A stretch of 64,000 nucleotides of DNA from Escherichia coli O157:H7 (GCF_013167455.1 NZ_CP038328.1); one strand, 5' to 3'. Positions 39,001 to 45,000 are shown, counted from the stretch's first letter. Made by a program: the numbers.

Positions 39001-42000
39001 GCGTTGCCACGAGAGGGTTGAATCCCAGAACGCGCCGGGTAACTGTTGCTTATAATTTAGCCCCAGCTTGATATTTCCCATATCCCGCGCCTGTAATGTC
39101 AGCTCCTCACCATTAAGCGTGTAATTCGACTTTCGTCGAATGAGTTCTGCACTACCGGCGAACTTTTTTGTTTTATCGCGATAAACGGTATGCGTCGCTT
39201 TTGCGCTCAAGTATTCGCTGATGCCAACATAATCCAGCGAGATGTACGAAAGCGGAATCACCTGCTGCGATTTACTTTTGCTATAGAAAAAGCCGTACTC
39301 CCAGTACCCCACCGGAATGGAATAATAACTACTGACGTTTTCATACTGTCCGGTAGTACTACGCGTACCGGCGAGATAAAACAGATCCCCCATTTTCGCT
39401 GGATTAAACAGATAACCCACCGAGGTTGTCTGGTAACGGCCCGTTTCTTCATCGCCCCAATTGTTGTAACTTGCCCGAACGCTCCAGTTTTTCCCCCGGT
39501 GTGTATCAATATGAACGATGCTGTAACCATCCCGTGTTCCCGGTTCAATATTAATTTTCACATCAACGTCAGGTACTCGCTGAAGATTTTCCAGCCCCTG
39601 TTCAATATCACGAATATTGAGAATATCGTTACGCTGAAAAGGTAACATCCATTCACTGATATCATTACCTTCGACAATCGTTTTTTCTATCTTCCCGGCA
39701 TTAACCTGGAAACGTAGCTTGCCTTTAGAAATATCCTGCGAAGGGATACTAATTCGCGTTGTGATATATCCCGCATTAATATAATAATCCTGCAAGGCAG
39801 CTGCAATTTTTTGCACACCAGCACTACCGACACAACGTCCGGCAATCGCTTTTTGCACTTCAGAAATCAACTGACCACCCAGAAAGTTATCTTCCAGTTC
39901 AATCCGATTAATGATAAAGCAATTCTTTTCCTGCGGCAGATCACCCAGAGTAAACGCATTACGTTGTGCATTTGAGTAAACATCTTTTTTTTCTAATTTA
40001 TGCGCGCGCAACGTGCTTTCATCTGCATTTTTTTGCTGCTTGATCAAATTATCAAGACTGTCTTTCGCTGCAACCTGAAAACAACAAAGAATGAGCAGCA
40101 AACCAAAATTAAATCGTAATTGCATTATCTTCTCAAACTAAATAAAGACAGCAGCAACCCCTGCGTGACATGACGCATTAATATTAAAAGCCACTGCTGT
40201 CTTTGGTTACATCTTACATGCCGACAATAGTACCGGTGTTATCAGTTTCGTTTGCTTCTAACGCTAAACCGTAGAAGCCACCGAGAACAGCGTCTTTACC
40301 GCTATTCGTAACCTTATTTGCCGATACGCCAGCGACACCATAACTCAGCATATTGAGGTAGTTATAAATATTACCGGTGGTTTTAACACCCAGAGAATAA
40401 TCACCCACAATATTTCCACGGTTATTAATGTCATTCACGGCATTGATCGCGATGGTTTGTCCCAACATATTACTGTTGCTGTTGTTGGTAACATACTTCT
40501 GCGTATCAATAGTCAGCGCAGTACCCGCCACAATGTCTTTAAAGTTCTCAACACCGTTCAGGGCATTAATGGTCAGCGCGTTGTCCGCCGCGATGGCATT
40601 ACGGTTATACAGCGTGCCTTTCAGAACATTGAAATGCACATCTCCTTTACCGCTGATCCAACCATAGTTAGTGACACTGTTATCAACGCTCAGATCCAGG
40701 TTTTTGTCAGACGCAATCACGCCCGTGGCGGTATTGTCTTCCAGGCGACCATCGCTGGCGTTGTTCAACGACGCCGCATAAACGTCGAGATTACCGGCGC
40801 TGTACGTGGTGGCATAGTTGTTGTAGAACGTCCCTGCCGCACGGATGATGGCATCAGCCCCACTGCTAAGAAGCGCGCGGGTATTATCCAGCGTTCCCCT
40901 GGACAGCAGATTAAGCGGACCATTTTCAGCGATGATGCTGCTGTTATTGTTGTAGACGTTCTGAGCAGAAAGCGTGACACCTTCTTTACCTACGATGCCG
41001 CCAACGTTGTCGGTAATTCCAAACAGCGCGCCGTTATTACGCAGGAAGTTATTCCCGTCGCGGTTTTCGAGGTTGCCGCCAGCGTTAATAACCAGCTTTT
41101 TATTCGCCGCGATCAGCGCAGTGTTGTTGTAAATCGTCGATTTAGCATCGACAGAAACATTCTCACCGGCAATCAAACCATAGGCGTTGTCTACAATGTT
41201 CGCCGTCAGAGTCACGTCGCCCGTTTCAGAGGTCAGCGAACCCTTATAGCTGTCGTAGTTGCCCGTCAGTGCCAGCGTGACATCGCCATAACCACGAATT
41301 TCACCGTTATCGTTGTTCAGATTGTTGCCTTTAACAGACAACACGCCGTTCAACGCATGCAGATTACCGCGGTTGTTACCCACGTTACCCTTCGAATCGA
41401 TAATCAGATCGCCTGTCGCTTCGATGGTCGCGTTATTGTTCGCCACGCTATTTGCCGACAATGCGATATCCCCATACCCTACCATATAGAGATAGTTATA
41501 CAGGTTGCCTTTGGTCGTCACGTTCAGGTCAGCGTCACTGACAATGTTGCCACGGTTGTTGATATCGTTAACCGCGTTAATAACAATATTCTGCCCCACC
41601 ATATTGCTGTTGGAGTTGTTGGTCACATGGCGATTGGTGTTCATCGTCAGGTCGCCGCCAGCAGAAATATCCTTCCAGTTTTCAATACCGTTCAACGCGG
41701 CAATATCCAGCCCCTTTTCAGCCGCAATGGTATTGCGGTTATACAGGTTGCCGTTATTCACCGTGACATCAACATCGCCTTTACCGCTGATCCAGCCGTA
41801 GTTGGTAAGGCTATTCACCACTTCCAGTGACAGGTTTTTATCAGATGCTATGAACCCGGTCGCATTGTTATCGATCATCGTACCGCTGCTGCTGTTTTGC
41901 AGCGTGGTCGCGTCGATATCCAGGTTGCCCGCACTCCAGGTGGTAGCGTAGTTGTTGTAATACGTTCCGCCAACCTGAATAGATGCATCCGCCCCGCTGG

Positions 42001-45000
42001 TGACCAGAGCACGCGTGTTGTCGAACGTGTTCTGCGCCTGCAGAGTCAGAGGACCATCCTCAGCGATAAGACGGCTGTTGTTGTTATAGATGTTCTGCCC
42101 GGAAAGCTCGATGCCTTCCTTGCCGACCATTCCACCCGTTTGCTGAGGCATGCCGAAGTACAGACCATAAGCATTACCGAAGTTATTGCCATCGCGGTTT
42201 TCGATACTGCCGCGCGCATTTATCTTCAGTTTTTTGCTGGCCACGATCAGCGCTGTGTTGTTATTGACGCCAGACATCGACTCCATCGTGATGTTCTGCC
42301 CCATCATGAAGCCGCCGTGGTTATCCACGGAGTTGGCTAACAGGGAGATATCACCCTCTTCAGAGCTGATCACGCCAATATTATTGGTCAGGCTGCCGCC
42401 AACGGCGACTTCAATACCCTGCTTACCGCTGATCCCCCCGGTATCGTTACGCAGAGAGCTTCCCTTGATAATCACTTTGCTGTTGGACAGAATTTTGCCC
42501 GCATAGTCGTCGATCGTGCTGTAACTTGACAGGGAGACGTTGCCATTAGACGCAATCTGTCCGCCGTTGTTATTGATGTTGTTCGCACCAATTTCTACGC
42601 CGGTATCTGCAATAATGCCCAGAGAGTCAGAACTGCCGGTATCGGCGGTTTTGGTTGAACCATTATTTACGCTACCTGCCGCGCCAATAACGATATGCCC
42701 GGTGGACGAACGGATCAGACCTTTGTTGTTATCCACATTACCGTTACTGATAATGGCGATATCGCCGGTGGTCTGGATATCACCGTTGTTGTTATTCAGC
42801 GCAGCGGATTCAAGACCCACATAGCCACCGCGAATCTGACCATTGCTGTTGTTGAGCGTTCCGGTTTTCAGCGCCACGAGCCCCGCTTCAATCCCGACAG
42901 AACTCCCTTTACCAGAGTTAATCAGCGTGGCGTTATTGGTATCAACCGCCAGCATTCCTGCAGCCGCAAGCTTGCCGTTAGTATTGTCAATCGTACCGCT
43001 GTTAACGTAGATATCGCCCATCGTAGAGATGTTACCCGCACGGGTATTCACGATAGTATTCTTGTTGGTATTAAGCGAGATAGTGCCTACAGATGTCACC
43101 GTACCGGTGGTGTTATCCAGAGTACCATTTGTTGTCAGGTTGATCGTGCTTGCAGACTGAATCTGGGCGTTACTGTTTAACAGGTTACCTTTGGAATCGA
43201 TGCTGACACCATTAACACCCCCAGCAATAACGCCGAGGTTGCGAACCCCCACACCTTTCTCGGTGCTGACCAGACTGATTTTGTTCGCATACATTCCGCC
43301 CAGTTTGGCAACATCTACGCTGTAACCGTTACGGGACCCCGTGGCGGATACGCTACCGGTCACCTGGCCTGCGGCATTAACATAGTTATTGCCAGCAACA
43401 ACGTTCAGCTCATCGGCAGACACTTTGCCGTTAACTACCACGTTACGGGACAGAATTTCTGTCGGGCTGGCGTTATCCAGTTTACCGAGCGTAATGGTAC
43501 CGCCGTTCACGGAGTAACCGGCCAGCTTGTCATCCTGGATATCCGGCGTCCCGGTGGTTAAGGTAAGTTTACCTGTATTGATTGAACCGCCACCGTTTAC
43601 AGTAATACCATTCGGGTTGGCAATAATCAGATCCGCTTTATCCCCTGCAACTTCCATCATCCCATTAATGGTTGAAGGATTTTTGGAAGTAACCTCATTC
43701 AGGATCACCTTCGCCGACCCGGAGGTCAGATTACTGTTTCCCTGAATATTTCCGGCAAGTGAAGTACTGGATTCATTAGCGCTATTATTGAAAACGACAC
43801 CATTTTTATCAACGTTTAGGTTATCCCAGATATTATGAGATAAACCGCTACCGTTAGGTTTGTTGATGTCAACGACTGGCACACCATTGGCGTTATATAC
43901 CGTTCCATTTTTTATGACTAATCCCGCCGCTTGAGAAGCTACAGGAAAAGACAACATCATAAGTATAGCAATAGGGGTTAATGCTTTCCCCACCGTTGCT
44001 TCCTTACTTAAATTTATCATCGCCACTAACGTTTTCCTTATTGATGCTATTCATTTTGGACATGCAGATCACTTTTGATGACTCACGGAATATCAGCAAA
44101 AATGATTGCGGCAAATCCTATCACCTGGCGCAATAAAAAATCACGAAAAATAAGCTGAAATAAGGACTCAAAAAAACAACTAAGAGTTATTGTTTTTTCA
44201 TCGAACGGCGAAGAACCTAACTTACTAAAACACAATAATTTAAAAGTCCCCCATCCTTGCTCCTTGGGTGAAAAAAATCCAATTTAGAGGACGTCTGAAA
44301 TGATATGTAGTTTTCTGTACGACATCATTTCAGACATCCGAATAAAACAACAAAGTTGGTGAGTTACAATTAATTTAAATCTTATTATTTGATTAACAAA
44401 GCATCATCATTACTGCATCTTATTCTCTATATCTTTTACGTCGGGGTAGATTCTTTATGGTCATTACGGGCAGGCGACATTTCATTATATTACCATTTGC
44501 ATTCACGCATGTAACCCTTAAGAGTTATATAAAAAGGAAAGAGTTCTTGCTCATGGTATTACTGAGATCGGATTAACCATGAGGTTAGCTATATAGAGAG
44601 CTTTGGCTTTGCGACAATTGGCTTAAGCAGCCACATTATGCCTGGCTTATCGTTGAAAGGGAGAAAGAAGAGCAAAACGGTTTGGCAAGCTTTCATTCCC
44701 ATCTAATAGCAATCACCGCTATACATCATCCCTTAACGTATTCTGGTCTTCATAAAAATGTTATTCTAAATTAAAGATTGTAATGATTTTAATAATGTTG
44801 TTATTATTTTGCAACAAATCAATCTAACACAATGATTATTCGCGATTTTTATTAGTTAAGAGGAATTGTTTTTACAGATTGCGCTACAATTCCGCTCATT
44901 TCTCACCACAGGAAAAGCTGAAGTAATCTTAAATGACTGTATTAACCCTTTTCTCCGCTGCCAGCACTCTTAAATATCGTTGTTTTATTCTTATAAAAAC

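Follow-up and report, generated by a model that had tools for sequence, protein, structure and literature searches.

In this study we show that the tpsA gene in a 64,000-nucleotide (nt) stretch of the Escherichia coli O157:H7 genome (GCF_013167455.1, NZ_CP038328.1) encodes the exoprotein OtpA, and that the C-terminal half of this protein is a tandem intragenic duplication. The whole stretch is called the window here, and positions are counted from its first letter. OtpA is very probably a two-partner secretion (TPS, type Vb) exoprotein with one ancient duplication of a module of 378 amino acids (aa), encoded by a gene of stable length that occasionally loses one module through microhomology. 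The gene and its partner were located as follows:

40214..44026, minus strand, otpA (tpsA), open reading frame (ORF) of 1270 aa with a GTG start, from ORF call and translation
38506..40125, minus strand, otpB (tpsB), 539-aa Omp85-type transporter, from Pfam and RefSeq annotation

Across the otpA region the window is a 100% match to E. coli O157:H7 chromosomes, and the 3813-nt gene is 100% identical to that of EDL933 and of many O157:H7 genomes. RefSeq labels its product 'filamentous hemagglutinin N-terminal domain-containing protein'. The OtpA/OtpB pair of EDL933 was reportedly described by Choi, Dawson and Bernstein in 2007 and by Choi and Bernstein in 2009. Our 1270-aa ORF and the 539-aa ORF that follows it are this published pair, at the same locus and without any difference in sequence. 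Summaries in reviews and in a later O157 paper give the locus names ECs1282-ECs1283 (Sakai) and the names OtpA/OtpB for the pair characterised in EDL933; as far as such literature summaries go, the pair is a genuine two-partner secretion system, secretion of OtpA depends on OtpB, periplasmic intermediates have been reported, and an older annotation called OtpA 'hemagglutinin/hemolysin-related'. The gene therefore belongs to a system that has been characterised before, and module duplications within beta-helical exoproteins are nothing unusual. What we add concerns the great age of the duplication and its origin in one event, the uneven divergence of its units, the natural one-unit chimeras and the linkage to a lipid cluster; the primary OtpA papers may already mention the duplication.

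The C-terminal half of OtpA is a tandem duplication

When the whole protein was compared with itself by BLASTP only the diagonal was returned, and the repeat became visible once the protein was split. With composition-based statistics, aa 525-863 then aligned to aa 903-1241 with 202 identities in 339 positions (60%), 74% positives and no gaps (E 5e-126). The offset between the units is exactly 378 aa, or 1134 nt, and it is also seen in the DNA, which is 66.8% identical over 799 nt at this distance and holds three repeat families (D3, D5 and D10) spaced by 1134 nt. Position by position, similarity at the 378-aa offset starts at about aa 511/889 and ends at aa 863/1241. The remaining internal matches of OtpA are gapped and only 23-36% identical, and the ungapped 60% at one single offset is therefore a signal far above generic beta-helix periodicity. 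The following parts can be distinguished:

41363..42496, minus strand, repeat unit 1, aa 511-888 (378 aa) with a high-identity core at aa 525-863, from self-alignment, offset identity and homologues; modelled as beta-helix coils with a short alpha-helix loop
40304..41362, minus strand, repeat unit 2, aa 889-1241 (about 353 aa) with its core at aa 903-1241, from self-alignment and a unit-2 clade with 100/100 bootstrap support
40214..40303, minus strand, C-terminal tail, aa 1242-1270 (29 aa) and stop codon, outside the repeat; offset identity at background, no Pfam match, kept in one-unit homologues

The first-pass annotation had described a diverged 1.13-kb tandem duplication in tpsA, and this description holds, self-alignment having revealed more than the low-complexity similarity that it named as a refutation. 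Its interval of 40246-42229 (aa 600-1260) had the right period but began 75-90 aa too late, since the whole repeat spans about 40304-42496. Likewise, of the two unit lengths it gave, about 375 aa for the first comes close to the 378 aa found here, while the second is about 353 aa and not about 290 aa.

Of the 381 complete E. coli genomes with otpA, 379 match the 3813-nt query over 80% or more of its length at a single place, and among the matches listed every full-length copy spans 3812-3813 nt. Because 379 of the 381 genomes hold a full-length copy, the two-unit gene is no assembly artefact, a concern that the first-pass annotation had raised. The duplication is confirmed: the two copies are adjacent and collinear, their similarity lies above background, and orthologous copies exist in relatives. 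It can be dismissed with near certainty that this similarity merely reflects the low complexity or general periodicity of beta-helix repeats: N, G, S and T abound in OtpA, its period is about 20 aa and many offsets give weak matches (23-36%), but none of this accounts for 339 ungapped residues at 60% identity, for units that behave as orthologous sets across genera, or for natural chimeras that respect the 378-aa register.

Age and divergence of the two units

Over 1017 aligned nt the units are 62.6% identical, with identities of 71%, 78% and 39% at first, second and third codon positions. Synonymous differences amount to a proportion (pS) of 0.755, which is saturated, and the nonsynonymous divergence (dN) is 0.32. 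Saturated synonymous sites at such a dN argue for long purifying selection on both copies. The longest exact in-register run that the units still share measures 17 nt:

41778..41794, minus strand, 17-nt identity TGGATCAGCGGTAAAGG, encoding WISGKG, partner at 40644-40660; family D5, lying in the probable crossover zone of the homologue P0035 (see below)

A search for homologues over about 5.8 billion proteins returned two main length classes, one of about 847-935 aa in most genera and one of 1268-1301 aa in E. coli, Enterobacter, Aeromonas and metagenome lineages. Intermediate lengths of 1023, 1129, 1205 and 1231 aa were found as well (P0006, P0034, P0037-P0040 and P0043), which indicates partial second units or single-coil losses. 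None of the best 120 homologues has three units, the longest being 1301 aa. The two-unit forms of Enterobacter have a period of 399 aa, with about one extra coil in the linker between the units.

In a bootstrapped neighbour-joining tree of the 339-aa cores, rooted by midpoint only, the unit-2 copies group together without exception (100/100), as do the unit-1 copies (87/100), and the two clades fall within the one-unit proteins of Klebsiella, Leclercia, Kosakonia, Buttiauxella, Rahnella, Winslowiella, Mixta and Acinetobacter. Because the unit clades are separate and nested in this way, the tree points to a single old duplication, which would have taken place before the versions of E. coli, Enterobacter and Aeromonas separated.

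The two units have not diverged evenly. Orthologues share on average 81% identity with OtpA in the TPS domain, 70% over aa 283-510, 63% in unit 1 and 70% in unit 2. One loop of unit 1 stands out:

42119..42190, minus strand, unit-1 loop with FGMPQQ, aa 613-636 (predicted helix at aa 613-624), from motif count, alignment and model

FGMPQQ occurs once, in unit 1 only, in 31 of 31 two-unit homologues, and its residues are invariant in the alignment. The equivalent loop of unit 2 (aa 991-1014) has diverged, and close one-unit relatives carry FGMPQQ-like loops; the motif NYGWIS is retained in both units. We propose that unit 1 keeps the ancestral FGMPQQ loop while that of unit 2 has changed, so that the copies would have diverged in loops relevant to function.

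One-unit deletion alleles

Comparison of otpA length across strains, which the first-pass annotation had suggested, yielded the long form in the 379 complete genomes described above and a few rare short alleles. Two E. coli OtpA proteins, P0007 and P0008, have 892 aa, that is 1270 minus 378, and their genes are each exactly 1134 nt shorter than O157 otpA. P0007 (allele A) does not differ from OtpA until about aa 607, from where it follows the +378 register to the end, and P0008 (allele B) switches to the register of unit 2 at about aa 677-682. Their junctions were placed by sequence comparison:

42192..42204, minus strand, allele A junction, 13-nt in-register identity TCGAAAACCGCGA, partner at 41058-41070
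41991..41995, minus strand, allele B junction, GGGGC within a patch of 13/15 identity, partner at 40857-40861

The microhomology at the allele B junction was not lengthened when O157 was compared with D8. The surroundings of both alleles are unchanged, with the fimbrial operon on one side and otpB-acpS on the other. Two samples yielded allele A, and three contigs carry allele B, among them one from Logan and one deposited at NCBI (source samples for both alleles: ERR10491137, SRR29490122, SRR24033007 and GCA_031590855.1). Both alleles carry private substitutions relative to the O157 gene (29 and about 100 differences), and in both its samples allele A is coupled with a split otpB and a split GcvT-like gene. 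We rejected the idea that these 892-aa forms are ancestral one-unit proteins, since their halves are 98-100% identical to different O157 units. A further homologue, P0035 (893 aa, 79% identical), has its crossover at aa 722-752, around the 17-nt WISGKG identity, and is probably a third chimeric allele that arose from a more divergent two-unit parent.

For RecA to recombine efficiently in E. coli, roughly 23-27 bp of identity are needed. As the two junctions measure 13 and 5 nt and the longest in-register run 17 nt, these events look like short-homology deletions and not like classical homologous recombination, and we attribute them to replication slippage or other short-homology events. The suggestion in the first-pass annotation that the repeat is a substrate for recombinational length variation is thus borne out insofar as 892-aa alleles exist, but the route appears to be deletion at microhomologies. 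Length variation of otpA is real but rare.

Several points weigh against our reading of OtpA and its duplication. The deletion alleles come from short-read assemblies only (five contigs), and neither junction occurs in any of about 380 complete E. coli genomes. The lineage of allele B is not represented among complete genomes, the closest being about 94-96% identical. The in-register pattern is partly a matter of ascertainment because a protein-based search detects only in-frame products; moreover, all 20 of the 20 exact direct repeats of at least 11 nt within otpA are in frame. In the tree of the units the placement of two one-unit proteins, P0041 and P0044, is ambiguous because of the midpoint rooting. 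The coil count and the added shaft length given below come from a predicted model. Finally, reviews list the function of the exoprotein as unknown.

The first of these points is also what speaks for regarding the 892-aa alleles as products of repeat collapse during assembly, so that the length variation would not be real. De Bruijn assemblers work with k = 21-31 or more, and an identity of 13 or 5 nt is too short for them to join. In addition, the junctions recur in independent samples, with allele B recovered through two pipelines (Logan and NCBI-deposited), each allele bears its private substitutions, and allele A is tied to the split otpB and GcvT-like genes in both samples. We therefore consider an assembly artefact unlikely.

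It is less likely still that the repeat serves as a contingency device, in which frequent RecA-dependent recombination would switch OtpA between a long and a short form. Natural 892-aa alleles with at least two independent junctions would fit such a device, but the ungapped nucleotide identity of the units is only 62.6%, exact in-register runs do not exceed 17 nt and stay below the RecA minimum of about 23-27 bp, 379 of 381 complete genomes have the long form with the junctions in none of them, and a three-unit form is missing from the best 120 homologues.

OtpA as a two-partner secretion exoprotein

The N-terminal part of OtpA holds the elements of a secreted TpsA protein:

43928..44026, minus strand, predicted Sec signal peptide, aa 1-33, MAMINLSKEATVGKALTPIAILMMLSFPVASQA, from the translation judged by eye
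43181..43903, minus strand, TPS secretion domain, aa 42-282, Pfam PF05860 (E 2.8e-41) and TIGR01901 (E 7.9e-22)

By eye, the N-terminus has the typical n-h-c pattern and ends with SQA at aa 33. The TPS domain carries the motifs NKPN at aa 55 and NPNG at aa 137 and is homologous to Fha30 (1RWR, E 8e-36) and to the secretion domain of HpmA (E about 1e-33). Relatives of solved structure were found by sequence for the TPS domain only, as secretion-domain fragments that cover aa 47-264. Across aa 1-1270 the only Pfam families are TPS and Fil_haemagg, the Fil_haemagg repeats being weak. An AlphaFold2 model of aa 283-1270, built on an alignment of 23 homologues, has a mean predicted local distance difference test score (pLDDT) of 94.5 and is essentially all-beta, with strand triplets every 20-21 residues or so. 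It places a short alpha-helix at equivalent sites of both units (aa 613-624 and aa 991-998), and the C-terminal tail forms its last beta strands. The standard rise of a beta-helix is 4.8 Å per coil. From the model we infer about 17-18 helix coils for one repeat unit, and since these multiply with the 4.8 Å rise, one module would add roughly 8-9 nm of shaft. No PDB entry matched the model significantly in Foldseek (best EtpA, E 0.12, then HxuA), which speaks neither for nor against an adhesin role because long beta-helices align poorly. With a TPS domain bearing NPNG-type motifs, a predicted beta-helical passenger and an adjacent cognate TpsB, OtpA has the make-up of a TpsA protein.

Among known exoproteins, FhaB/FHA (filamentous hemagglutinin) of Bordetella, HMW1 of Haemophilus, EtpA of enterotoxigenic E. 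coli (ETEC) and HxuA share with OtpA the TPS domain, Fil_haemagg repeats and a long beta-helix, which in OtpA is predicted. Both fhaB-fhaC and hmw1A-B run in the order A then B, and so does otpAB. However, there is no sequence similarity to these proteins beyond the TPS domain, and OtpA is much shorter than FhaB. It also lacks a glycosyltransferase partner of the HMW1C or EtpC type; acpS and a lipid pathway follow otpAB instead.

The cytolysins ShlA and HpmA likewise share homology in the TPS domain and a ShlB-family transporter with OtpAB, and OtpA might accordingly be thought of as a pore-forming cytolysin of this type, not as a fibre or adhesin. Its TPS domain matches HpmA almost as well as Fha30, and the older 'hemagglutinin/hemolysin-related' annotation would agree with this. 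The gene order in shlBA and hpmBA is B then A. That of otpAB is reversed, OtpA is shorter, its likeness to solved cytolysin structures is limited to the TPS domain (aa 43-292), with no similarity outside it, and the remainder of OtpA is a continuous beta-helix in the model. The original authors, as summarised in the later O157 paper, placed OtpA with neither the haemolysin nor the adhesin subtype. On balance a cytolysin seems improbable, although of the alternatives weighed here it fares best, slightly ahead of the assembly artefact.

Systems of contact-dependent growth inhibition (CDI) were the other comparison of interest, as the first-pass annotation had claimed that OtpA lacks a CdiA-type toxin end. 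This claim stands. The string VENN is absent from OtpA, and Pfam searches of aa 1-1200 and aa 600-1270 found no PF04829 (PT-VENN), no PF13332 or PF04830 (Fil_haemagg_2, DUF637) and no toxin domain. No same-strand ORF of at least 20 aa lies in the 88-nt gap between otpA and otpB, and the next gene is tpsB, leaving no immunity-like ORF downstream. PADLOC returned no defence-system family. CdiA/CdiB/CdiI have two-partner secretion and FHA-type repeats in common with OtpA, but their order is B-A-I whereas that of OtpAB is A-B, without VENN, FHA-2/DUF637, a variable C-terminal toxin or an immunity gene. Judging by these features, OtpA is no CDI effector and carries neither a toxin nor an immunity cassette.

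Could it be a CdiA, degenerate or orphaned, whose toxin tip has disappeared? FHA-type repeats in a TpsA are what one would expect then, and a homologue from Mixta, P0055, is labelled 'tRNA nuclease CdiA-2'. Besides the missing VENN, PT-VENN, DUF637, Fil_haemagg_2 and immunity ORF, the C-terminal tail is conserved and not polymorphic (100% identical within the E. coli cluster, 34-79% across other lineages), the short architecture is usual in at least nine genera, and a true CdiA-like gene with DUF637, which adjoins the Aeromonas orthologue, looks quite different. We regard this origin as extremely unlikely. P0055 itself (Mixta intestinalis) has the one-unit OtpA architecture and the lipid-cluster context, and its label is a probable misannotation.

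Proposed mechanism

Export by Sec, recognition by POTRA domains, threading through the barrel and folding outside the cell are established for the TpsA family. By analogy, OtpA would be exported by Sec, its N-terminal TPS domain would be recognised by the POTRA domains of OtpB, and the protein would be threaded through the OtpB barrel and take up its long right-handed beta-helix fold on the outside. One ancient in-frame tandem duplication of the 378-aa module would have given rise to the C-terminal 57% of this shaft, both modules having been retained under purifying selection while diverging in their loops. Since the units are only about 63% identical in DNA, recombination of the RecA type should be negligible and the length of the gene stable. 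Occasionally, slippage or short-homology events at in-register microhomologies might delete exactly one period and so give rise to in-frame 892-aa chimeras. OtpA is most likely a secreted or surface fibre that works with co-inherited genes for lipid synthesis and Lol-like export.

A conserved lipid-synthesis and Lol-like cluster

Downstream of otpB, acpS begins after 15 nt and opens a long run of genes:

24680..38490, minus strand, 14 co-oriented genes past otpB, from annotation; NCBIfam hits all below curated cut-offs

Their order is acpS, a ketoreductase/short-chain dehydrogenase (KR/SDR), a FabA/Z-like dehydratase, an acyl carrier protein (ACP), a GcvT-like gene, a fused double ketosynthase, a ketosynthase-like gene, a gene of unknown type, an ABC ATPase, another unknown, a LolC/E-like permease, a LolA-like gene, a third unknown and a FabD-like malonyltransferase. 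No enoyl reductase gene was seen among the 16 genes of the module. The first-pass annotation had placed tpsB 88 nt behind tpsA, followed by lipid genes; the gap is exactly 88 nt (40126-40213), and the order turned out to be that of a conserved cluster. Nine of nine loci from eight genera and four orders show one and the same series of genes behind otpA-otpB (E. coli, Enterobacter, Aeromonas, Klebsiella, Winslowiella from an Erwiniaceae metagenome contig, Acinetobacter, a Neisseria sp. and Mixta; locus labels L002-L005, L009-L012 and L014-L016). The loci outside the window were read up to the ABC ATPase. On the side opposite the lipid cluster the flank differs at every locus.

This arrangement bears on an earlier suggestion, given in the later O157 paper as far as it is summarised, that OtpA is an accessory to the neighbouring fimbriae. 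We rejected this candidate, as the adjacency is not conserved outside E. coli; the idea is weakened because the fimbrial operon lies outside the conserved unit. In the literature searched we found no paper that links two-partner secretion to this lipid cluster. It might tentatively be proposed that OtpA does not act alone as an adhesin or toxin but is the secreted arm of a horizontally mobile 16-gene module, and that its activity depends on the lipid- or polyketide-like product of this module. Such a product could be a covalent modification, a cofactor or a co-exported cargo displayed on the OtpA beta-helix.

OtpB, the spacer and the surroundings of the locus

In Pfam, OtpB matches POTRA_2 (E 1e-15), POTRA_3 (E 2e-13) and the ShlB barrel (E 2e-67); NCBIfam gave no match. 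Between the two genes a structured element was noted:

40144..40204, minus strand, stem-loop with a U-rich tract behind it, within the 88-nt spacer, minimum free energy -28.1 kcal/mol, z-score -2.5

Its GCAGCAG/CTGCTGC stem and the T-tract are kept in five genera (E. coli, Enterobacter, Aeromonas, Klebsiella and the Erwiniaceae locus), with one compensatory change from G-C to A-T in the stem. From this conservation, the hairpin may be a terminator or attenuator that sets the OtpA:OtpB ratio, or a stabiliser of the mRNA 3' end. A consensus scan of 38300-45500 for promoters and terminators stayed at chance level and missed this long-loop hairpin, and Rfam found nothing in or near the otpAB locus.

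Upstream of otpA, a non-coding region of 1390 nt with 34% GC (44027-45416) separates the gene from the divergent fimbrial operon. Most orthologous loci have upstream gaps of 1.0-1.9 kb as well, mostly AT-rich (19-37% GC; 44% in Aeromonas), and no nucleotide similarity could be detected between the upstream regions of eight loci.

The otpAB locus is decaying in several E. coli lineages. In SCU-316 otpA is truncated beside an IS1 insertion sequence and the ACP gene has an internal stop (L006); otpB is frameshifted in D8 (L007) and otpA in ETEC6335 (L008); the lineage of allele A has both otpB and the GcvT-like gene split (L002/L003); and one O158:H23 genome (H30) has otpB but no otpA. In one of about 381 E. 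coli records otpAB lies on a plasmid and not on the chromosome.

Further away, the left part of the window belongs, in the annotation of TW14359, to an island with an integrase (22128-23330), insertion sequences, traT and ure genes. A 605-aa hypothetical ORF at 20124-21941 on the plus strand, in a stretch of 32% GC, adjoins this integrase, and Rfam matched 5_ureB_sRNA (86.5 bits, E 5e-21) at 1631-1909 on the plus strand, within the urease cluster at the left end of the window. There are no tRNA genes in the window.

Conclusion

A vaguely annotated gene thereby gets a fixed identity: it encodes OtpA and no CDI toxin. Its diverged intragenic repeat offers a clean example of a sequence that still loses exactly one period through microhomology. 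The natural variants described here could be used to probe OtpA, as they comprise the two-module protein, one-module chimeras that keep or lose the FGMPQQ loop, and ancestral one-module proteins. The linkage to the lipid cluster redirects functional hypotheses away from the fimbriae, and the strict co-inheritance of OtpAB with a pathway for lipid synthesis and export is the most promising lead. If OtpA indeed acted together with the product of this module, the duplication would offer it twice the shaft and twice the number of NYGWIS sites.

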